This document shows positions 1 to 47,422 of a stretch of 64,000 nucleotides of DNA, one piece after another. Each line of letters begins with the position of its first letter. Positions within the stretch are counted from its first letter, which is position 1. Position numbers and translations under genes: made by a program. Source of the DNA: Patescibacteria group bacterium (GTDB lineage: Bacteria > Patescibacteriota > UBA1384 > XYA2-FULL-43-10 > 1-14-0-10-43-13). Location of the stretch: contig JBAZBD010000001.1 in the NCBI GenBank assembly GCA_041671645.1, forward strand, positions 412,890 to 476,889, given 5' to 3'. Below the pieces are notes generated by a model. The model was not told where the DNA came from. It ran no database searches and saw nothing but the letters and a program-made list of their open reading frames with translations.

Positions 1-499
1 TCTTTGATTTTTCGGGCGATAGAGCGGTCAGAAGTGAGAAGGGCGGTTTTGACATATTGCTGAGTGATGGTTGAGCCTCCACGAAGAACTGCAGTACGAC
101 CGAGCATCTTATCTACTACCGCGCTCAAGATACTGCTGAATCTGATACCATGGTGCTGATAAAAATTAGCGTCTTCTACGGATATGGTGGCGTCTTTGAG
201 ATATTGAGACATTTGGTCGCTTGGGACGATGGTTCTTTTCTGGTCGCCGGTTTCGTAAAGTAGCATTTTCCCGGTTTTGTCATAAATTTTGGTCGAGACA
301 GTTGGCTTGCGACCAGCAATTTTAGATGGAGTGGGCAAATCCTTCGAAAACCAAGCGAAAAGAAGGGCGATAACCAAAATTATGCCGAGTACAGAATAGA
401 TCGTCCACGTCCAAAAAGAATGCCAAAAATGTTTTTTCTTCTTCGGCAACTCTCTCTTTACCTTTGACTTGAACAGGCATTTGAATACGTTCTTCATTT
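1..499 (-). CDS. Penicillin-binding protein 1A-type peptidoglycan glycosyltransferase (GT51), N-terminal part; truncated by the window start
   Basis: Minus-strand translation from the ATG at 499-497 gives MKNVFKCLFKSK..., then a TM segment (WTIYSVLGIILVIALLFAW), then the GT51 motifs EDANFYQHHGI and RGGSTITQQY. It is absent from the ORF track because it runs off the edge. Confidence 0.6.
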
Positions 500-611
500 T
501 GTTGACCATTGTGCTAGCGATTGTGTTTAATTTCATATTCCTCTTTCTTTACATTATACGTCCATATTGATATTCTGTAAATGAATCGTGCTTGTAAAAT
601 AAGGAAATAAT

Positions 612-1787
612 ATGGCAGACGAAGAATTTTTTGATCGTGGCGTAACAGAGATCATTACCGAGGCGTCTTTTCGTGAGAAGCTAAAAGCGGGCAAGAAACT
701 TCGTATCAAATATGGAGTCGATCCAACCAAACCAGATATCCACCTGGGCCATGCCTCAGTGATGTGGAGACTTCGAAAGCTTCAGGATGAAGGCCATACC
801 ATTATTTTCTTGATCGGCGACTACACTACCAAGATTGGCGACCCGTCCGGTCGCAATGCTACCAGGCCGGTGTTAGATGACGCCGAGATCAAGAAGAACG
901 CCGCAACTTACTTCGATCAAGCTGGCAGGATTTTAGATATGGGCAAAACCGAGATCAGATACAATTCAGAGTGGTTTGATAAATTGTCCTTTAACGATCT
1001 TTTGCAAATAGCTGGTAAATTTACGGTGGCTCAAATCATTGAGCGCGATGACTTCGAGAAAAGATTAAAAGAAGGCCATGATATTGGACTTCATGAGACG
1101 CTCTACCCAGTGATGCAGGCGTATGATTCTGTCATACTTATGGCTGATGTCGAATTTGGCGGCGGCGATCAGAAATTTAATATGCTAGCCGGCAGGGATT
1201 TGCAGAAGAAGATGAATCAATTGCCTCAGGATGTCGTAATGTTTAAGCTTTTGGTCGGACTGGACGGCAAGATCAAGATGAGCAAATCAGCAGACAACTA
1301 CATTGGAATTACTGAGCAGCCAGATCAGATTTTTGGCAAGATAATGTCTATCCCGGATAGCGCGATTATCGAATATTTCGAATTGGCCACAAAGATATCG
1401 GAAAATGAGATCGAAAAGATCAAGGACGAGTTAAGAGAGGGCAAGAATCCTCGAGATATCAAAATCCAGTTGGCCAAAGAGATTGTCTCTATCTATTATA
1501 GCGGCAAAGATGCCGAGGCAGCTGCCTTAGAATTCGAGAAAGTATTTTCGAGGAAGGAGCTTCCGACAGATATTCCTGAGGCAAAGATTGAATATGGAAA
1601 TTATAATATTTTGACCATACTAACTTTACTCGGCAGCGTTTCATCAAACTCTGACGCTAGAAGACTGGTCGAGCAGGGCGGAGTCAGGATAGATGAGGCC
1701 AAGATTACTGATCCGACTGCACAAATTGCGATCGATAAAGGCATGATAATTCAAATCGGCAAAAAGAATTTCTTCAAGATAAAGTAA
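612..1787 (+). CDS. tyrS: Tyrosyl-tRNA synthetase
   Basis: Class I HIGH (HLGH) and KMSKS motifs; C-terminal S4-like RNA-binding domain; 391 aa. Confidence 0.9.
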   Translation: MADEEFFDRGVTEIITEASFREKLKAGKKLRIKYGVDPTKPDIHLGHASVMWRLRKLQDEGHTIIFLIGDYTTKIGDPSGRNATRPVLDDAEIKKNAATYFDQAGRILDMGKTEIRYNSEWFDKLSFNDLLQIAGKFTVAQIIERDDFEKRLKEGHDIGLHETLYPVMQAYDSVILMADVEFGGGDQKFNMLAGRDLQKKMNQLPQDVVMFKLLVGLDGKIKMSKSADNYIGITEQPDQIFGKIMSIPDSAIIEYFELATKISENEIEKIKDELREGKNPRDIKIQLAKEIVSIYYSGKDAEAAALEFEKVFSRKELPTDIPEAKIEYGNYNILTILTLLGSVSSNSDARRLVEQGGVRIDEAKITDPTAQIAIDKGMIIQIGKKNFFKIK

Positions 1788-3472
1788 TGAGAAATATTGT
1801 AAAAGCAAAAATTGATCTAGCCCTAAAATCACTTGGTTTTAATTTGCCTGGCTATTCTGTAGATGAGCCTCCAAGTCGCGAAATGGGGGACTATTCGACC
1901 AACGTCGCGATGGTTGCGTCTGGCCTCGAGAAGAAAAATCCCCGCGAAATCGCCCAAAAGATTCAGTCAGAATTATCGAAAGATCCAGAAATTGAAAGTG
2001 TTGAGATTGCTGGACCAGGCTTTATCAATATCGCCTTAAAGAGTGATCTTTATACTGAAGAGCTCTCCAAAATCTTGGAAGAGGGGAGTAAGTACGGATC
2101 GTCGGAAATTGGCAAAGGCAAAACTATCAACGTCGAATATGTTTCGGCAAACCCAACTGGCCCTTTGCATATCGGCAATGCTCGTAGCGGCCCGATTGGT
2201 GAAGCGGTGGCTAATCTTTTTGAATTTAACAGCTATGGCGTCACCAAAGAATTCTATGTAAATGATATCGGGGTGCAGATCGGACGATTTGGGAAATCAT
2301 TATTCCACTGGTGCGCCATCAAGTCTGATCCTAAAATAGAATTCCCAGAAGGTGGCTATCCTGGAGAGTATATTCAGGAGACGTCAGAGAAAATTCAAAA
2401 AGAATTTGGAGATGAAATTGCTCACCTAGATAATGATCAGGAGAAAATCGATTTTTTTGCTAGAAAAGGTCTGAATGTTATGGTCGCAAATATTAAGTCA
2501 GACTTAGAACTAGCTGGAATTAACATTCATACTTTTTCATACGAAAGCAAGATTATAAATTCTGGAAAATCAAAGATAGTGATTGATCGCCTAAAAGAAA
2601 AAGGTTTTGTTGCTGAGAAGGATGGTGCTGTCTGGTTCAAGAATCCAGAAGACCCAGACCTTATGGACAATGACGCTGTATTGGCTAAGAGCGACGAAGA
2701 GAAATCTCTCACATATTTTGCCAATGATATCGCATATCATTTGGATAAGATTGATAGGGGTGCTGACAAACTTTTTGATATCTGGGGGGCTAATCATTTC
2801 GGTCATATACCTCGGATGAAGGCTGCGCTTAGAGCTCTCGGGTGTCCTGATGAGACGCTAGAAATTGTTCTATACCAATATGTCAGATTGAAGAAATCGG
2901 GCGTGGCTTCGAGCATGGGCAAAAGATTGGGCAATTTCGTTACCTTGCGCGCTGTGATTGAGGCGGGGGTAGAGGCAGACGCCTTCAAATATTTTATTCT
3001 TTCTCAAAACGCTAATACGCCGATGGATTTCGATATTGAACTAGCAGCCGAAAAATCAGAGAAGAATCCTGTCTACTATATTAAATATGCTCACGCTCGA
3101 ATTTGTTCAATTCTCAAGAAAATTGAGGAACAGGGGACCCCACTTCGCCAAGGCTTCGCGGGGCAGGTAAGCGATCAGGAGCGAGGAGATCTTTCATTAT
3201 TAAAAGACGAAAAAGAAATCGCCCTCTATAAAGAGCTGGTAAAATTCCCAGAAATCGTCGAGGAAACTCTTGTTGATTTTCAAACTCAACGACTCCCCCA
3301 CTTCGCTTACAAAATCGCCGCTCTCTTTCATGATTTTTATAACTCATGCAGTGTAATTGATGCAGGATCAAAAGAGCTTGTATCAGCTCGCTTGTCCCTG
3401 ATAATCGCGACCAAAAATATTCTGGCCAATACTCTAAAAATCTGCGGCATCAAGGCCCCAGAGAAGATGTAG
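1787..3472 (+). CDS. argS: Arginyl-tRNA synthetase
   Basis: 561 aa; HIGN class I motif; N-terminal Arg_tRNA_synt_N-like region and C-terminal DALR anticodon-binding region; overlaps the tyrS stop by 1 nt. Confidence 0.9.
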   Translation: MRNIVKAKIDLALKSLGFNLPGYSVDEPPSREMGDYSTNVAMVASGLEKKNPREIAQKIQSELSKDPEIESVEIAGPGFINIALKSDLYTEELSKILEEGSKYGSSEIGKGKTINVEYVSANPTGPLHIGNARSGPIGEAVANLFEFNSYGVTKEFYVNDIGVQIGRFGKSLFHWCAIKSDPKIEFPEGGYPGEYIQETSEKIQKEFGDEIAHLDNDQEKIDFFARKGLNVMVANIKSDLELAGINIHTFSYESKIINSGKSKIVIDRLKEKGFVAEKDGAVWFKNPEDPDLMDNDAVLAKSDEEKSLTYFANDIAYHLDKIDRGADKLFDIWGANHFGHIPRMKAALRALGCPDETLEIVLYQYVRLKKSGVASSMGKRLGNFVTLRAVIEAGVEADAFKYFILSQNANTPMDFDIELAAEKSEKNPVYYIKYAHARICSILKKIEEQGTPLRQGFAGQVSDQERGDLSLLKDEKEIALYKELVKFPEIVEETLVDFQTQRLPHFAYKIAALFHDFYNSCSVIDAGSKELVSARLSLIIATKNILANTLKICGIKAPEKM

Positions 3473-14254: not shown

Positions 14255-14923
14255 ATGTTTGGAATGAGCTTGTTCGCCACTAAAGTAATATTGTTGTCGC
14301 TCGGGGTTGTCGTCTTGGGCGGGGCCGGATATAGCGCCTACCATTATATAGCTACAAAAGATTCAGATAGTACTGTTGAGGCGAAGATCACTGGCGTGCA
14401 AGCAACGGCCAAAAATATCACAGTTACCGAGGCGAGGATTGATGCGGGTGCAGTAAATTATGGCACAGAAGAGAATATTGTCGCTGGCTATACGGCAACC
14501 GCTTATGTCAAATTAAATTCTACGACCAAGTTGTCAAAAGTGGCACTCGAAGAGCTCAAAGTTAACAACTTGAGCGCACTTGGCGATTGTACTACCAGCG
14601 AGAAAGATGCCAGCATCGACACCTTCATTCCTAGTATCGGACAGCGAGGTTACATAAGCTTCAAATTGAGCTGTCGGACCGGCGTCTCATACTCAGTTGA
14701 TAGCGTCCTAGCTACATCTGGCGAGTGGAGTGGTATGAAATTACTTAGTTATGCTGGCCTGACCCCTGGAGCCCTGCAGAGATCTCTGACTTTTGATGTT
14801 GCGGCCAAGTATGATGATGGGACTATTGCTCGGAAATCGTTTAATGGTACGATCAGCGGCCAGACATTGTTCAATGGTGATTTTGGCGCTGGCTCACTTT
14901 CGGGACAAGGTGACAGCTTCTAG
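14255..14923 (+). CDS. Membrane-anchored extracellular hypothetical protein
   Basis: 222 aa; N-terminal TM (VILLSLGVVVLGGAGYSAY), then a beta-rich extracellular region. Confidence 0.45.
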   Translation: MFGMSLFATKVILLSLGVVVLGGAGYSAYHYIATKDSDSTVEAKITGVQATAKNITVTEARIDAGAVNYGTEENIVAGYTATAYVKLNSTTKLSKVALEELKVNNLSALGDCTTSEKDASIDTFIPSIGQRGYISFKLSCRTGVSYSVDSVLATSGEWSGMKLLSYAGLTPGALQRSLTFDVAAKYDDGTIARKSFNGTISGQTLFNGDFGAGSLSGQGDSF

Positions 14924-14964
14924 GATTACAAGAAATAATATTTCGTAATAATATAAGGAGAGAA

Positions 14965-15249
14965 ATGAACGAAGAAAAAGAGGCGAAGGGCGAGAAGTGT
15001 TATTGTGGCTGTGGCTGTGGCAGCGACTGCAAATGTGGTTGCGGATGCGGCTGTGGAACTAGCAAGGTCAAGAAATGGCATCACGGTAGCGCAAATGGCG
15101 GTGGTATCTACTGTCTTGGTATGATCGGTGTGGCAATATATTACATCCAGCAAGTAGACGGTTTTGGACCGATTATTGTCGCTATTCTGAAAGCTATCGT
15201 CTGGCCAGCGTATTTGCTCTACAAAGTTTTCACTATGTTGCACATGTAG
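14965..15249 (+). CDS. Small Cys-rich (metallothionein-like CxC repeat) protein with a C-terminal TM helix
   Basis: 94 aa; CYCGCGCGSDCKCGCGCGCG (10 Cys in 20 residues), then the hydrophobic helix IYCLGMIGVAIYY...IVAILKAIVW. Confidence 0.5.
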   Translation: MNEEKEAKGEKCYCGCGCGSDCKCGCGCGCGTSKVKKWHHGSANGGGIYCLGMIGVAIYYIQQVDGFGPIIVAILKAIVWPAYLLYKVFTMLHM

Positions 15250-15274
15250 TTTTGCTTAGTTTTTAGGCGAATAT

Positions 15275-15321
15275 CAAACACCTTATATATGTGCCTGCCC
15301 GCCTCTGGAGGGAGGTGTTTG
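15275..15321. repeat. Degenerate member of the AAACACCT...AGGTGTTT palindrome family
   Basis: CAAACACCT-(29 nt)-AGGTGTTTG; the outer arms are identical to the perfect palindromes at 22836 and 46285. Confidence 0.4.
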
Positions 15322-15380
15322 CGTCTGCGAAGACTCTTTAACGGCTTGAATCGTTATCGAGTTTAGAATAAGATTTAAAT

Positions 15381-15935
15381 ATGTTCAAAAAGATATTGAT
15401 TGTCGACAATAATTCGAAACATACGGCCAAAATTGCCAAGCTTTTCTCTGGCGACGAGATTAGTATTTGTAAGTGTGAGGATTTCGAGTCAGATAAGGCC
15501 GAAACATTTGATTTGGTGGTTCTCTCGGGGGGAAGTCACACCTACGCCGCCGATAATGAAAAAAATGCATATTCCGCCGAAATAGAATTTATCAAACAAA
15601 CAAAGAAGCCGCTCATTGGCATATGTCTGGGCTGCCAACTGATCGCCAAGGCATTCGGTGGTAAACTCACAAAGCTCGCCGAGAAACAGAGTGGAATATT
15701 GGAGATCGCCAAAAGTGTGAAAAAGTATGAAGTTTTCGAATCACACAAATATGCCATCTCAGAGATGCCAGATGAGCTAGAAACCCTTGCCGAGTCCGAG
15801 ACCGGGCCAGAAATTATCAGACATCGGGCGAGACCAACCTTCGGCTTTCAATTCCACCCCGAAGTATTCCCGCGAAAAACCGATGGCAAGAAACTATTTG
15901 ACCAAGTCATCGCTCAAGTTATCAAGTCTGCTTGA
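15381..15935 (+). CDS. Class I glutamine amidotransferase-like protein
   Basis: 184 aa; nucleophile elbow GICLGCQL; FQFHPE near the C-terminus (catalytic His/Glu region). Confidence 0.7.
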   Translation: MFKKILIVDNNSKHTAKIAKLFSGDEISICKCEDFESDKAETFDLVVLSGGSHTYAADNEKNAYSAEIEFIKQTKKPLIGICLGCQLIAKAFGGKLTKLAEKQSGILEIAKSVKKYEVFESHKYAISEMPDELETLAESETGPEIIRHRARPTFGFQFHPEVFPRKTDGKKLFDQVIAQVIKSA

Positions 15936-18007: not shown

Positions 18008-18598
18008 TTGCTGGGGGAAGGTCTAACCATGGAGAATAAATTTGAGAAAATCTGGGATTTGGCCATGCCTTACCTCAAGAAGGGCATTATGAAGGATTTT
18101 GTTTCTCACACTAAGTATGTCGTAAAGTCGATGGAGATGATTATTGACGGCGAAGGCGGGGACGAGGATATATTAATTCCCTCTGCCATACTTCATGATG
18201 TCGGCTGGTCGAAAGTTGATCCATCTCTGCAATTAAATGACGACATGGAAAAGAAGCGTGAGGGCCAGAGGCAACATATCACTTTCGCCAAGGAAATTGT
18301 CGAGGAGGTTTTGGACCAAGCAGGTTATTCCGAAGAAGATATTCAAAAAGTTGTGGGGATAGTCATGGCTCACAAATTCCAAGACCCAGAAGACAAAGAG
18401 AAGCAGATGTTGATCGATGCAGACAACCTCTCCGACACTTTCAAGGAGCAGTTTGACTCTGATGTTGTCGCTTATCATTCAACGCCTGAGCAAGTTTATG
18501 AATATAGAATGAATAATAAATATTACACGCAAACCGCCCAGCAAATCGCAGATCAACAAATGGCAAAACTAAAAGCTGAAATTAAAGATAAGATTTGA
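18008..18598 (+). CDS. HD-domain phosphohydrolase
   Basis: H...HD (AILHDVGW) and a downstream D (IDADNL) in HD superfamily spacing; start adjacent to the preceding stop. Confidence 0.6.
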   Translation: MLGEGLTMENKFEKIWDLAMPYLKKGIMKDFVSHTKYVVKSMEMIIDGEGGDEDILIPSAILHDVGWSKVDPSLQLNDDMEKKREGQRQHITFAKEIVEEVLDQAGYSEEDIQKVVGIVMAHKFQDPEDKEKQMLIDADNLSDTFKEQFDSDVVAYHSTPEQVYEYRMNNKYYTQTAQQIADQQMAKLKAEIKDKI

Positions 18599-19083
18599 GT
18601 ATGAATACAAAAAAAGAAGAAACATATTTAGACAGAAATGGTGATCCACACCAGAAGCCGACCGACATGGAGGTGTTGCATCGCGATTCTGCTTATGGGA
18701 TAGCTCTGAATGATGGTAGAGTCCTCCTCGTTAAATCACCCGACTTTGGCTTTTGGGTAATCCCTGGCGGAGGAGTCGAAGAGGGAGAGACGCTAGAAGA
18801 TGGACTGAGGAGAGAATTTTTAGAAGAAACTGGTTTTCTGATTGACGAGATTGGAGAATTGTTCTTTTCTGAGCGGCTAAGCTTTTATCATCAGAAATTG
18901 GATTCGTATTATGATTCGCACTGCAAATATTTCTTGGTTACGATGAAAAACGAGACACAAGATCTTGCTAAACTTAACCCTGAAGATGCGGGCGAAATTC
19001 GCTGGTTCGATTTATCGGGTTTTGATCTACGCATCTTGAATCACGCCAGCAGGAGAGCAGTAGAACTATTAATTAAGAATTAG
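18595..19083 (+). CDS. NUDIX hydrolase
   Basis: Nudix box GGGVEEGETLEDGLRREFLEETG. Confidence 0.8.
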   Translation: MSMNTKKEETYLDRNGDPHQKPTDMEVLHRDSAYGIALNDGRVLLVKSPDFGFWVIPGGGVEEGETLEDGLRREFLEETGFLIDEIGELFFSERLSFYHQKLDSYYDSHCKYFLVTMKNETQDLAKLNPEDAGEIRWFDLSGFDLRILNHASRRAVELLIKN

Positions 19084-21300: not shown

Positions 21301-22464
21301 TTGATCGGCATCGGAAGGGGATCCTCGCGCAACTATTTATTATTCAAGAAAGACTTTGCAATGGCGTGGACTGAAATAAAATATAGCAAAAATTTAGTAA
21401 ATCGAGCAGGAGATACTCTCATTAGCCAAGGATCTTCAACAGATGAGATTAACGAGGCGCTAATGGTTCTTGACAACTGGCGCTCTGCCCATAGCTTTCC
21501 CTTGCATATTTTTAAAAAGAGATTAAAGGTTGTTTCTAGCGCGGTTGATGACACCTCTTTAGTCGTTCAAAGGCTTAAGCGCAGCCCAGCCATCCTCAGA
21601 AAATTGCAGAGAAGATATGGAGAGCTATCTCCGACAATGAAACTATCCCAAATGCAGGATATCGGAGGATGCAGGGCCGTACTAGCGAATGTAAAACTGG
21701 TTAATAAGATTTGTAGCGAATACTATCATACTGATAAAGCAAATCGTGGCGAGCATTGTGATTTAAAGCACCAATTCAAAAATAAAAAGGATTATATCAA
21801 CAATCCTAAGGATGACGGCTACAGGGGTGTTCATCTGATTTATAAATATATAAGTGATAAGTCCAATAAATATAATGGGTTGCTTATTGAAATTCAGGTT
21901 AGGTCTAAGCTCCAGCATCTCTGGGCAACTGCAGTAGAGACAGTCGGCCATTTTACAAAGCAGGCGCTAAAGTCAAATGAGGGAGAAGAGGACTGGATTA
22001 CCTTCTTTAAACTTGTAAGTTCAGTGTTCGCTCAGAAGGAGAAAACACCCCCTGTTCCAGATACACCCATTGATGGCTCTGAATTGTTTCGACAGGTTGA
22101 GAAATTATCGAACAAACTTCAGGTTGTAGAGAAAATAAAAAGCTGGGCTGAATCGTTAAGGCAAATGGAGCAGATTGAGCAGAACGAGCCGCACAAACCA
22201 CATTTTTATCTTCTGGAATTGGATATCGATACCAGGAGATTAGCAATACGGGCGTTTGATAAGAAAGATGAGGAGACGGCAAATCAAATGTATTCTGCGG
22301 CAGAAAAAAGGGCTAGCGAAGCGAAGGCAAACAGAGATATTGTGCTAGTTGAAGCTGATACAACAAAAGAACTCCAAAGGGCCTATCCAAATTATTTTTT
22401 GGATACAAAAGAATTTATTCAAGAACTTGAGAATTATTTAAATAATGCCGAAGGTATTAAATAA
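21301..22464 (+). CDS. RelA/SpoT-domain nucleotide pyrophosphokinase (standalone synthetase domain with ~85-aa N-terminal and ~170-aa C-terminal extensions)
   Basis: Synthetase motifs in order: RLKRSPAILRKLQRR (Syn1), DIGGCRAV (Syn2 Mg-binding Asp), GYRGVHLIY (Syn3), EIQVRSKLQHLWA (Syn4 catalytic Glu). An alternative start is MAWTEIKY at 21361. Confidence 0.7.
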   Translation: MIGIGRGSSRNYLLFKKDFAMAWTEIKYSKNLVNRAGDTLISQGSSTDEINEALMVLDNWRSAHSFPLHIFKKRLKVVSSAVDDTSLVVQRLKRSPAILRKLQRRYGELSPTMKLSQMQDIGGCRAVLANVKLVNKICSEYYHTDKANRGEHCDLKHQFKNKKDYINNPKDDGYRGVHLIYKYISDKSNKYNGLLIEIQVRSKLQHLWATAVETVGHFTKQALKSNEGEEDWITFFKLVSSVFAQKEKTPPVPDTPIDGSELFRQVEKLSNKLQVVEKIKSWAESLRQMEQIEQNEPHKPHFYLLELDIDTRRLAIRAFDKKDEETANQMYSAAEKRASEAKANRDIVLVEADTTKELQRAYPNYFLDTKEFIQELENYLNNAEGIK

Positions 22465-23760: not shown

Positions 23761-24288
23761 ATGAAGTTATCCAAGAATGTCAAAGCAATTTTGAGTACTA
23801 TTGGCTTGGGGCTGGCGCTTACAGTCGCGTCCACCTCGCCATATTTTTTGGTCAATTTAGTCAAATCAAAGAACAAATACGAGAAATATCGCTACAAGAA
23901 AATCATCAAAAAATTGTTTGACGACAAGATCATTTATCTTTCGGGGGAGGAAATAAAGTTGTCCGAAAATGGTCTCGAACTGCTGAGGCTTGCGCAGGTC
24001 GAGGATATCACTATCGCCAAGGGCAAAGGCGAATGGGATGGTTTTTGGCACCTGGTCTGCTATGACGTGCCGGAATCATACAAGCAGAGGAGGGATTGTT
24101 TCCGCCGAAAACTTATTGAATCAGGATTTTACCAAGTTCAGTACAGTCTGTGGGTAATTCCGTGGCCATGCAAAGAGGAGATTGCGATTATTGCGCAAAG
24201 TCTCGACATTGCGCCCTTTGTTGCCTATCTCAATACCGATTATCTGCCCCAACAACAAAAGCTCCTGAACCATTTCGATCTCGCATAA
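23761..24288 (+). CDS. PaaX-like domain protein (putative transcriptional regulator) with an N-terminal hydrophobic anchor
   Basis: WDGFWHLVCYDVPESYKQRRDCFRRKLIESGFYQVQYSLWVIPWP matches the PaaX middle-domain signature (W-x-G-x-WHLV-x-Y..P...R...R..L...GF......W). It has a preceding wHTH-like region (LSENGLELLRLAQ) and an N-terminal TM/signal. Confidence 0.5.
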   Translation: MKLSKNVKAILSTIGLGLALTVASTSPYFLVNLVKSKNKYEKYRYKKIIKKLFDDKIIYLSGEEIKLSENGLELLRLAQVEDITIAKGKGEWDGFWHLVCYDVPESYKQRRDCFRRKLIESGFYQVQYSLWVIPWPCKEEIAIIAQSLDIAPFVAYLNTDYLPQQQKLLNHFDLA

Positions 24289-25260: not shown

Positions 25261-25292
25261 CCCTCCGTCTAATCGGGGGGATTTTATTTTGG
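25261..25292 (+). terminator. Intrinsic terminator
   Basis: CCCTCCG-tctaat-CGGGGGG followed by ATTTTATTTTGGG. Confidence 0.5.
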
Positions 25293-25369
25293 GTAGAATT
25301 GCAGGCAGTTTTCCTATCACTCTTTTCGGAGTAAGATTAGAATATGAAAAAAGTATTGAGAAAGAGATT

Positions 25370-25834
25370 ATGAGGATCTTATTTGTGTGCACTGATAATA
25401 TTGGGCGGAGCGTGACGGCTGAGTATTGCCTCAAAGATTATCTGGCCAAACATAATATTGATGGCGTTGATGTGGCTTCTGCCGGGACTCATGCGGATAG
25501 CGACATGACCGGATTTTCGATGGCGCATTTTCCGAAACTTATGAAGCTAGGTATTGATGCTTCTGGGCATAAGAGGCGACAACTGAGTCAAGAATTAGTG
25601 GATTGCGCCGACAAAATTGTGGTTTTTGACAATTCACACCAAGGGTGGATTAGGCAAAAATTCGGCCTGAATGTGCCTCTCTATAACGAGATATATATAA
25701 ATGAATCAACTGAGATCAGGGTATCGGGACCAGAGTTGAAGGGCACCTCTGACGATCGGATGATCCAGCTCGTAGACTATATTTATAGTTCAACCCCAAC
25801 TTTTTGGGAAAATTTGAAATTGCTCTCTAAATAA
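25370..25834 (+). CDS. Low-molecular-weight phosphotyrosine phosphatase / ArsC (LMW-PTP family arsenate reductase)-like
   Basis: P-loop ILFVCTDNIGRS (C-x5-R-S); start set at MRILFV; ~154 aa. Confidence 0.7.
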   Translation: MRILFVCTDNIGRSVTAEYCLKDYLAKHNIDGVDVASAGTHADSDMTGFSMAHFPKLMKLGIDASGHKRRQLSQELVDCADKIVVFDNSHQGWIRQKFGLNVPLYNEIYINESTEIRVSGPELKGTSDDRMIQLVDYIYSSTPTFWENLKLLSK

Positions 25835-46362: not shown

Positions 46363-47109
46363 CTATTTTGTTGCTTCAATCTTCAAGCTCTCCAGAGGTA
46401 TGCCGCTATATTGGCGTTTGCTGATACCCTTGTCTTCAGATAAAATCTTTACTTTAAAACCTGCAGATTCAACGATTTTAATATAATCATCTCTCAAGAG
46501 CGCTCCGCCAACGCAACCACCCAATAATTCTTCGTTGTTTTTGATCTCATCGGAGATATCTTCTAGGAGCACAATATCCGAGACAAACATTTTACCGCCT
46601 TCTTTTAGAACACGATGAGACTCAGCAAATACTTTTGATTTATCAGGAGCAAGATTAATGACGCAATTGCTAATAATTATATCAATTGAATTGTCTTCAA
46701 CAGGGAGATCTTCGATATCTCCGAGTCGAAATTCAACATTTTTATAGCTCAACTTTTGGGCATTTTGCTTGGCTTTTTCAATCATCTCTTCTGAAAAATC
46801 TACGCCGATGACTTTGCCTGAATCACCGACCTTTTTCGCAGCCAGAAAACAATCAAATCCTGCGCCAGAGCCCAAGTCCAATACAGTATTTCCTTCTTTG
46901 ATGTTGGCCAAAGCTGTCGGATTGCCGCAACCAAGTCCCAGGTTGGCATTGGGTGCGGAGCTTATCTCGTCCTCAGAATAACCGATGCTTTTGGCAATTT
47001 GATCATTGGTCGAGTCGTCACAGTTGCAACTACAGCCACAAGTCGAACCATTAACGGCGATCTTCCCATAAAAATTTTTTACAATACCTTTAACCTTATC
47101 CTTTTCCAT
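46363..47109 (-). CDS. arsM: Arsenite S-adenosylmethionine methyltransferase
   Basis: SAM motif I VLDLGSGAGFD; conserved Cys-containing blocks GCGNP and ISNCVINL (the ArsM As(III)-binding cysteines); N-terminal CGCSCNC; overlaps arsR. Confidence 0.75.
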   Translation of the reverse strand: MEKDKVKGIVKNFYGKIAVNGSTCGCSCNCDDSTNDQIAKSIGYSEDEISSAPNANLGLGCGNPTALANIKEGNTVLDLGSGAGFDCFLAAKKVGDSGKVIGVDFSEEMIEKAKQNAQKLSYKNVEFRLGDIEDLPVEDNSIDIIISNCVINLAPDKSKVFAESHRVLKEGGKMFVSDIVLLEDISDEIKNNEELLGGCVGGALLRDDYIKIVESAGFKVKILSEDKGISKRQYSGIPLESLKIEATK

Positions 47110-47422
47110 GAAATTCTCCTTTACTTAAGATTTTGTTTAGAAGTTCTCTATATTTATTTAATTCTTTCTCATTGATTGAATAATAGACGTTCAGGCCCTC
47201 TTTTCTGGAATTTAGCAAATCAAAATCTTTTAACACTTTCAAATGGTGAGATGTAAGATTCTGAGGCAATTCTAAAAATTCCCAAATTTTGCAAACGCAC
47301 TGCTCATCATATTTTTGAAGAAAGCAAATAATGGCAAGGCGATTGTCTTCTGAGATTATTTTTAAGAATTCAGCTAATAAAGGCGTAGAGCTCTTGTTAT
47401 TGCGACAGTGATTTTGTATCAT
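47096..47422 (-). CDS. arsR: ArsR/SmtB-family metalloregulator
   Basis: wHTH with the metal-binding CVC (EQCVCKI) and a SHHLKVL recognition helix; 108 aa. Confidence 0.8.
   Translation of the reverse strand: MIQNHCRNNKSSTPLLAEFLKIISEDNRLAIICFLQKYDEQCVCKIWEFLELPQNLTSHHLKVLKDFDLLNSRKEGLNVYYSINEKELNKYRELLNKILSKGEFHGKG

Follow-up and report, generated by a model that had tools for sequence, protein, structure and literature searches.

The 64-kb stretch of DNA analysed here (the window) holds, on its plus strand, a small gene at 14965-15249 whose translation from an ATG start, MNEEKEAKGEKCYCGCGCGSDCKCGCGCGCGTSKVKKWHHGSANGGGIYCLGMIGVAIYYIQQVDGFGPIIVAILKAIVWPAYLLYKVFTMLHM (94 aa), is identical to a protein labelled at NCBI as hypothetical protein WC227_02175 from a Patescibacteria MAG, where it is encoded on a contig of 868 kb. 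The features of the gene and of its surroundings are collected in Table 1. The candidate promoter-like site overlaps the 3' end of the upstream gene. No convincing terminator was found 3' of the gene, the fold of 15245-15345 having a z-score of -0.30, and the sole match of a consensus terminator scan falls within the coding sequence. The gene looks monocistronic and free-standing. Beyond the glutamine amidotransferase gene that follows it, unrelated enzymes are encoded, namely a serine hydrolase, an HD-domain protein, a NUDIX hydrolase, a peptidase S51, an RmlD-like reductase and a RelA/SpoT-domain protein. Within this same-strand string, the genes at 18008-19083 and 21301-22464 (+), which encode the HD-domain, NUDIX and RelA/SpoT-domain proteins (the last small alarmone synthetase-like), may be a cluster for nucleotide-alarmone metabolism.

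Table 1 Features of the gene for the Cys-tailed small membrane protein and of its surroundings in the window.
Feature	Position	Strand	Basis or remark
Upstream gene, 222-aa membrane-anchored protein	14255-14923	+	no Pfam match
Candidate promoter-like site, GTGACA-18 nt-AATAAT, 10/12 matches	14910-14939	+	consensus scan
Shine-Dalgarno-like AGGAG	14956-14960	+	4 nt 5' of the ATG; read from the sequence
CDS of the Cys-tailed small membrane protein, 94 codons plus stop	14965-15249	+	ORF list, homologues
Internal duplication, copy 1; unit K-C-x-C-G-C-G-C-G, holds three TGTGGC	14995-15020	+	repeat search
Cys tract, residues 12-31, CYCGCGCGSDCKCGCGCGCG, 9 Cys; proposed metal-ligand tail	14998-15057	+	sequence
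Internal duplication, copy 2; diverged, 77% identical to copy 1	15031-15056	+	repeat search
KKWHH linker, residues 36-40; Trp-His-His motif of the closest subfamily	15070-15084	+	alignment
Predicted hairpin helix 1, residues 46-63; invariant G55, Y59; also C50	15100-15153	+	AlphaFold2, conservation
Predicted hairpin helix 2, residues 68-91; invariant K76-A77-x-x-W80-P81	15166-15237	+	AlphaFold2 (pLDDT 87-93), conservation
Class I glutamine amidotransferase gene	15381-15935		downstream after a 131-nt gap
Gene for a 175-aa protein, PaaX central Cas2-like domain (E=7e-22), weak CRISPR_Cas2 match	23761-24288	+	
LMWPc (ArsC-like or low-molecular-weight phosphatase) gene	25289-25834	+	10 kb downstream
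Methyltransf_31 methyltransferase gene	46363-47109	-	arsR-arsM-type pair in appearance; 31 kb away
ArsR-family HTH gene	47096-47422	-	overlaps the start of the Methyltransf_31 gene

The codon positions were compared over the last 54 codons (the core) of seven homologous genes, i.e. the window gene and those of six other loci. Pairwise differences at positions 1, 2 and 3 of the plus frame amounted to 345, 236 and 676, respectively, and this excess at the third position is the pattern of a protein-coding frame under purifying selection. The chosen ATG is supported by the alignment, in which the M-x-E-E-K N-terminus is kept among the homologues. The first-pass annotation, which had taken this ORF for a gene, had also named a 105-aa ORF on the minus strand (14926-15243) as a possible true gene, and a region that is not translated at all as another possibility. 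The minus-strand frame is indeed open throughout the region in the window, and likewise in one other locus (L005), but five of the seven homologous genes interrupt it with 1-3 stop codons, the substitutions pile up at third positions of the plus frame, and homologues in the plus frame number in the thousands. With purifying selection acting in the plus frame, both a minus-strand gene and a non-coding region are next to impossible, and the plus-strand ORF is, by the evidence of these comparisons, a real and translated gene.

The membrane part of the protein had been described as a single hydrophobic helix of about 35 residues. A membrane segment is indeed present, but AlphaFold2, run with two different alignments that yielded the same model, predicts helices at residues 46-62/63 and 68-91 joined by a loop of 4-5 residues, with pLDDT values of up to 93, so that the supposed transmembrane helix would be a helical hairpin; residues 1-45 are predicted to be disordered. 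A first search retrieved 29 homologues of 51-106 aa, the named ones coming from Patescibacteria, Berkelbacteria and Woesebacteria MAGs. In their alignment, the C-terminal 50 or so residues are conserved with the consensus GG-x-IY-x-LG-x-IGVAVYYIQQV-x-GFWP-x-VLAILKAIVWPAFLLYKVFTMLHM, and G55, Y59, F67, K76, A77, W80 and P81 are invariant. The hairpin core holds no conserved Cys in the alignments. In the close subfamily, the residue equivalent to position 50 is often Cys, as opposed to the Gly of the Y-G-L-G motif that is typical of the family (IYCLG vs VYGLG), so that a thiol would lie within the membrane, close to the end of helix 1 that is predicted to face the cytoplasm.

The orientation of the hairpin was assessed from the charges of 256 members of the family. 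Positively charged segments of membrane proteins face the cytoplasm (the positive-inside rule), and the number of Lys plus Arg per residue is 0.19 in the N-terminal and 0.13 in the C-terminal tails, compared to 2 Lys/Arg and 53 Asp/Glu in the 1215 residues of the inter-helix loops. This distribution, read by the rule, strongly favours a topology in which the N- and the C-terminus face the cytoplasm and the short acidic loop lies on the outer side. In a tail with this predicted location, thiols would be kept reduced, next to the inner membrane face.

Against 1.84 billion representative proteins, a core profile built from the close subfamily matched 921 clusters of 50% identity at E<=1e-3, of which 474 reached E<=1e-10; the listed matches, 150 in number, are 48-109 aa long. 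A broader profile recovered at least 7991 clusters of 90% identity; among 120 listed matches of this profile, none had a precomputed Pfam domain and all source names read 'hypothetical protein'. The family members listed are 48-111 aa in length and stand alone, with the core at the C-terminus. The window protein, with 94 aa and a C-terminal hairpin, fits this size and architecture and bears the full signature of invariant or near-invariant residues (G55, Y59, F67, L75-K76-A77, W80-P81). In GTDB species genomes, at least 580 stretches match, both in bacteria (Patescibacteria, Saccharibacteria, Bacteroidales, Spirochaetes, Actinomycetes, Deltaproteobacteria and Gammaproteobacteria) and in archaea (Woesearchaeota, Pacearchaeota and Methanosarcinales). 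The window holds no second copy of the core, no phage copies of the family were found, and the only plasmids with a member are three near-identical ones of Rhodococcus. Scans of the window protein and five typical members against Pfam and NCBIfam at E<=10 gave spurious matches only (DUF7248, SecE, TraB), a sequence-profile search of the PDB gave nothing below E=0.6, and a Foldseek search with the model found no match in the PDB. These results identify the hairpin core as a very large, widespread and unannotated family of small membrane proteins of bacteria and archaea. By the same comparisons, the membrane part is the conserved core of the family and more than a mere tether, and the Cys tract is a variable accessory.

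The sequence reported for residues 12-31 in the first-pass annotation is correct, but the tract contains nine Cys (positions 12, 14, 16, 18, 22, 24, 26, 28 and 30) and not ten; the one remaining Cys of the protein, C50, lies inside helix 1 and outside the tract. No other 20-residue stretch in the six frames of the window has as many as nine Cys, the runner-up having six, and in 20 shuffled windows the highest counts per 20 residues were 5-6. The Cys tract is thus far beyond chance, and it is also kept in relatives. AlphaFold2 predicts it to be disordered, with a pLDDT of about 50 or less, and in the alignment it is hypervariable among homologues, with Cys positions that shift even between close relatives. 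The linker behind it had been noted for its His residues, and this observation gains weight from conservation: KKWHH is kept in 20 of the 29 homologues and replaced by HWHH, NWHH or KHHH in four more.

At the DNA level, the tract had been taken for a microsatellite-like repeat that might undergo slippage. Its microsatellite character is weak. Tandem Repeats Finder detected three perfect TGTGGC units (15004-15021), the tract holds a diverged duplication at 77% identity, and its second half has mixed codons. The two direct-repeat copies, 14995-15020 and 15031-15056, are set 36 nt apart, which indicates that the tract is a tandem duplication of the 12-residue unit (E/C)-K-C-x-C-G-C-G-C-G-x-x. The second copy uses mixed codons (TGT/TGC, GGC/GGT/GGA) and retains every Cys; that it has drifted at synonymous sites while its Cys were all kept indicates selection on the Cys residues. 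Aligned as DNA with its three nearest Cys-rich relatives, the gene shows in-frame indels (6, 18 and 30 nt) that are confined to the tract. Together with the internal duplication, these indels lend partial support to slippage on an evolutionary scale; the 90% cluster of the window protein consists of one member on one contig.

Across the family, the tails differ widely in their Cys content. Among the 150 best representatives, 77 have no tail Cys, 29 have one, 21 two, 16 three, three have four, two have five and two have six or more. In a sample of 256 non-identical members, which is enriched for close relatives of the window protein, 116 tails are free of Cys, yet the N-tails consist of 15% Lys, 5.7% Cys and 4.6% His, and 97 of them have at least two Cys compared to 8.7 expected at a typical Cys content of 1%. 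A vicinal CC pair is present in 42 of these 256 tails, and Cys are found across the whole 25 residues preceding helix 1, the last few included. The tails range from 0 to 60 residues in length and are unalignable, in contrast to the strongly conserved core. With nine Cys, the tail of the window protein is near the extreme of the family; sequence-divergent members have tails with 16 (P0022), 13 (P0041), 10 (P0002) and 7-8 Cys (P0027 and P0028).

In the subfamily of 21 tails with a KKWHH-type motif (WHH subfamily), Cys and His add up to four or more in every tail, and the two are inversely related (Spearman -0.61, p=0.003, a value that ignores shared ancestry); members with one or two Cys bear runs of His such as WHHRHHHHGH. 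Two other close relatives, P0007 and P0013, encoded in loci L005, L006 and L010, carry tandem GKDWKY-type repeats (CECEGKDWKYECDGKDWKYKKWHH) in place of the CxC tract, so that this position of the tail has seen two kinds of repeat expansion. These replacements and the indels described above suggest that the tail is a fast-remodelled, repeat-driven module that is still rich in metal-ligand residues.

The genomic context was compared over about 90 homologous loci, and the flanking ORFs of 86 of them were clustered all-against-all. No conserved neighbour emerged, as no neighbour family occurred in more than six of the 86 loci, and the recurring ones were generic (class I SAM methyltransferases, DEAD-box helicases, short-chain dehydrogenases and response regulators). 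A functional link to the downstream gene string, whose proximity had been noted in the first-pass annotation, therefore finds no support in the roughly 90 homologous loci, which have no common neighbour. The same annotation had drawn attention to arsenic-related genes. The LMWPc gene and the arsR-Methyltransf_31 pair (46363-47422) do exist, but a link to them is not supported, in view of their distance of 10 kb and 31 kb, respectively, and of the lack of conservation. An LMWPc gene also lies 650 bp downstream of the gene for Cys-rich P0004 (L092, 2721-3200); this recurrence, at two loci including the window, may be a coincidence. Near five other Cys-rich members (L001, L009, L093, L095 and L097), no metal genes were found. 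The sole clear metal-transport neighbourhood in the 90 or so loci is that of L006, where a DsbD_2/cupredoxin gene and a gene for an HMA-domain P-type ATPase (1-3150) lie about 2 kb upstream of the P0013 gene. The hints from L092 and L006 stand alone.

The 222-aa protein encoded upstream of the window gene is 64% identical (E=5e-100) to the product of a gene about 400 nt downstream of the P0013 gene on a Berkelbacteria contig. This match places the two genes next to each other in two lineages, in reversed order; the counterparts of the upstream gene are at 5684-6340 in L006 and at 5684-6340 in L005. In six of the 86 loci (L001, L008, L009, L040, L053 and L083), a DEAD-box helicase gene is found no more than 3 kb from the family gene, and the copy on Rhodococcus plasmid pDK1 (L090) adjoins genes for a universal stress protein, a cold-shock protein and a magnesium transporter. 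The helicase and pDK1 neighbours are a weak hint that the core family may be regulated by stress or cold.

Based on these data, we tentatively favour a protein made of two parts, in which the hairpin has a role independent of thiols and the tail is a membrane-tethered, metallothionein-like add-on that would couple metal or thiol chemistry to it. With its nine Cys in CxC spacing and its Trp-His-His motif, the disordered, Lys-rich tail would act as a metallothionein domain held at the membrane. The beta-domain of mammalian metallothionein also offers nine thiolates, which hold three divalent metal ions or about six Cu(I). The tail would chelate soft or borderline metal ions, e.g. Zn(II), Cd(II), Cu(I) or As(III), at the point where they enter or leave the cell, and would either buffer them or exchange them with whatever the hairpin does or contacts. 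The dosage of ligands would have been tuned over evolution as Cys-x codon pairs underwent in-frame duplication, slippage or loss, and in Cys-poor relatives the extra His would substitute for Cys. As about half of the tails in the family are without Cys, the conserved function of the hairpin cannot depend on thiols; the hairpin could be an oligomeric membrane element built around Y59, K76 and W80-P81, or could belong, as a subunit, to a universal membrane machine. The predicted cytoplasmic location and the trade-off between Cys and His in the subfamily both help the metal-binding reading of the tail. At E<=10, the window protein matches neither a metallothionein nor a Mer-family profile. Low-complexity repeat tracts can also expand neutrally, which counts against a metal-binding tail.

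The main rival is that the Cys tract is a low-complexity spacer that expands neutrally and that function resides wholly in the conserved hairpin. The hairpin could, for example, be a membrane-stress protein, or serve a membrane complex as a modulator or small subunit; the tail would then need only be hydrophilic and positive to remain cytoplasmic. The strong conservation of the core next to unalignable tails of 0 to 60 residues would fit such a spacer, as would the 116 Cys-free tails among 256, the marks of repeat expansion in the tract, the unrelated GKDWKY repeats of P0007 and P0013, and the absence of a metal-related gene context at about 90 loci. Yet Cys is costly and reactive, and a mere spacer hardly accounts for its share of 5.7% of tail residues, for 97 tails with two or more Cys where 8.7 are expected, or for the recurrence of Cys-rich tails in unrelated branches (P0022, P0041, P0027 and P0028). 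In addition, Cys plus His never falls below four in the WHH subfamily, where Cys trades against His, and the second repeat copy in the window gene has diverged synonymously with all of its Cys retained. We therefore consider a pure spacer doubtful, albeit a reading to be taken seriously.

Less probable still is that the tail serves as a thiol redox element, in which reversible disulfides, or thiols sacrificed as a buffer, would detect or quench oxidants or electrophiles at the membrane surface, perhaps switching the oligomeric state of the hairpin. A thiol-dense tail with a predicted cytoplasmic location is compatible with this role, and so are the frequent occurrence of the family in lineages from anoxic habitats (sediments, groundwater and digesters, according to record titles) and the position of the Rhodococcus plasmid copy near genes for universal stress and cold-shock proteins. 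The enrichment of His and its compensation for Cys, however, suit metal ligation better, thioredoxin or peroxiredoxin neighbours do not recur in the 86 clustered loci, and the CxC spacing is atypical of redox-active pairs; these are usually CxxC, and CxC is typical of metal-thiolate clusters. It is highly improbable that the Cys cluster is S-acylated and pins the tail to the membrane as in the eukaryotic CYSTM/CYSPD proteins. DHHC-type palmitoyltransferases are not known to occur in bacteria, which speaks against such a modification, and the window protein already has a two-helix anchor, from whose first helix the tract is parted by a 14-residue polar linker. What can be said for S-acylation is that Cys of the family occur throughout the 25 residues before helix 1, the nearest ones included, and that there is a precedent in the CYSTM proteins of yeast (PMC10840359).

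If the tail is a metal-binding domain, as we tentatively favour, a more general picture can be drawn, which we regard as a speculation unlikely to hold in full. The two-helix family would repeatedly have gained cytoplasmic Cys/His tails and would comprise a natural class of prokaryotic membrane-tethered metallothioneins, enriched in the reduced-genome CPR and DPANN lineages and in anaerobes, with the number of ligands set by in-frame gain and loss of repeats; the hairpin, with its invariant intramembrane Lys and its Trp-Pro, may itself be an oligomer that handles metals or other ions.

What is new here, at the level of the predicted protein, is a Cys-rich candidate metal-ligand peptide joined to a conserved membrane hairpin. 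Should the tail bind metals, it would be, as far as we found, the first natural membrane-anchored metallothionein-like domain of a prokaryote, a first lead to the function of a family whose thousands of small membrane proteins have been missed or labelled hypothetical, and a clear example of ligand dosage evolving by the dynamics of in-frame codon repeats. Should it be filler, the lasting result would be a large and well-defined family of small membrane proteins for which there is no Pfam or NCBIfam model. The family spans minimal-genome organisms (Patescibacteria and DPANN archaea), in which every gene that is kept is informative.

Among known systems, the bacterial metallothioneins (SmtA/BmtA, PF02069, and MymT of Mycobacterium) resemble the window protein in having a short, Cys-dense CxC segment with His nearby, and its tail is likewise predicted to be cytoplasmic and unstructured without metal. 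The nine Cys of the tract equal the ligand count of the metallothionein beta-domain. In a broad sense, metallothioneins are defined by a low molecular weight, more than about 15% Cys in CxC, CC or CxxC motifs, and few aromatic residues. Residues 1-45 of the window protein contain 20% Cys in CxC motifs; the whole protein contains 10.6% Cys and is rich in aromatic residues because of its membrane core. Unlike SmtA and BmtA, the window protein matches no corresponding profile (at E<=10, Pfam gave a spurious DUF7248 and NCBIfam nothing relevant), and thus it is not a member of their family. Known bacterial metallothioneins are soluble, whereas the tract in the window is fused to a conserved two-helix membrane hairpin. 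To our knowledge, none of the known bacterial metallothioneins is an integral membrane protein, and a search of open-access papers and bioRxiv preprints found no natural membrane-anchored one.

MerF and MerE are two-helix mercury transport proteins of about 80 aa with both termini in the cytoplasm and with conserved, essential Cys pairs. In the MerF/MerE/MerT group, the pair lies in or next to the first transmembrane helix, and the genes belong to mer operons. MerF and MerE resemble the window protein in size, in the two-helix hairpin and in having Cys motifs on what is, for the window protein, the predicted cytoplasmic side, and CC pairs occur in 42 of the 256 tails of the family. In contrast to MerF, MerE and MerT, however, the window protein matches no Mer profile, lacks conserved Cys in its core and has CxC instead of CC motifs; no mer genes were found within 10 kb of the window gene.

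The CYSTM/CYSPD proteins (PF12734) are likewise small, membrane-associated proteins with a Cys cluster. They are stress proteins of eukaryotes, and some members have been implicated in tolerance to Cd, Cu or Mn (PMC2804304). Yeast CYSTM proteins were once credited with a Cys-rich transmembrane helix and are actually palmitoylated on those Cys (PMC10840359). They differ from the window protein in that they are confined to eukaryotes and their C-terminal Cys cluster is itself the palmitoylated, membrane-binding element; the Cys tract of the window protein is N-terminal and apart from the helices, and without Pfam homology the resemblance amounts to an analogy. The closest relatives are the members of the unnamed two-helix family itself, with which the window protein shares signature, size and architecture, and among whose tails its own is one of the richest in Cys.
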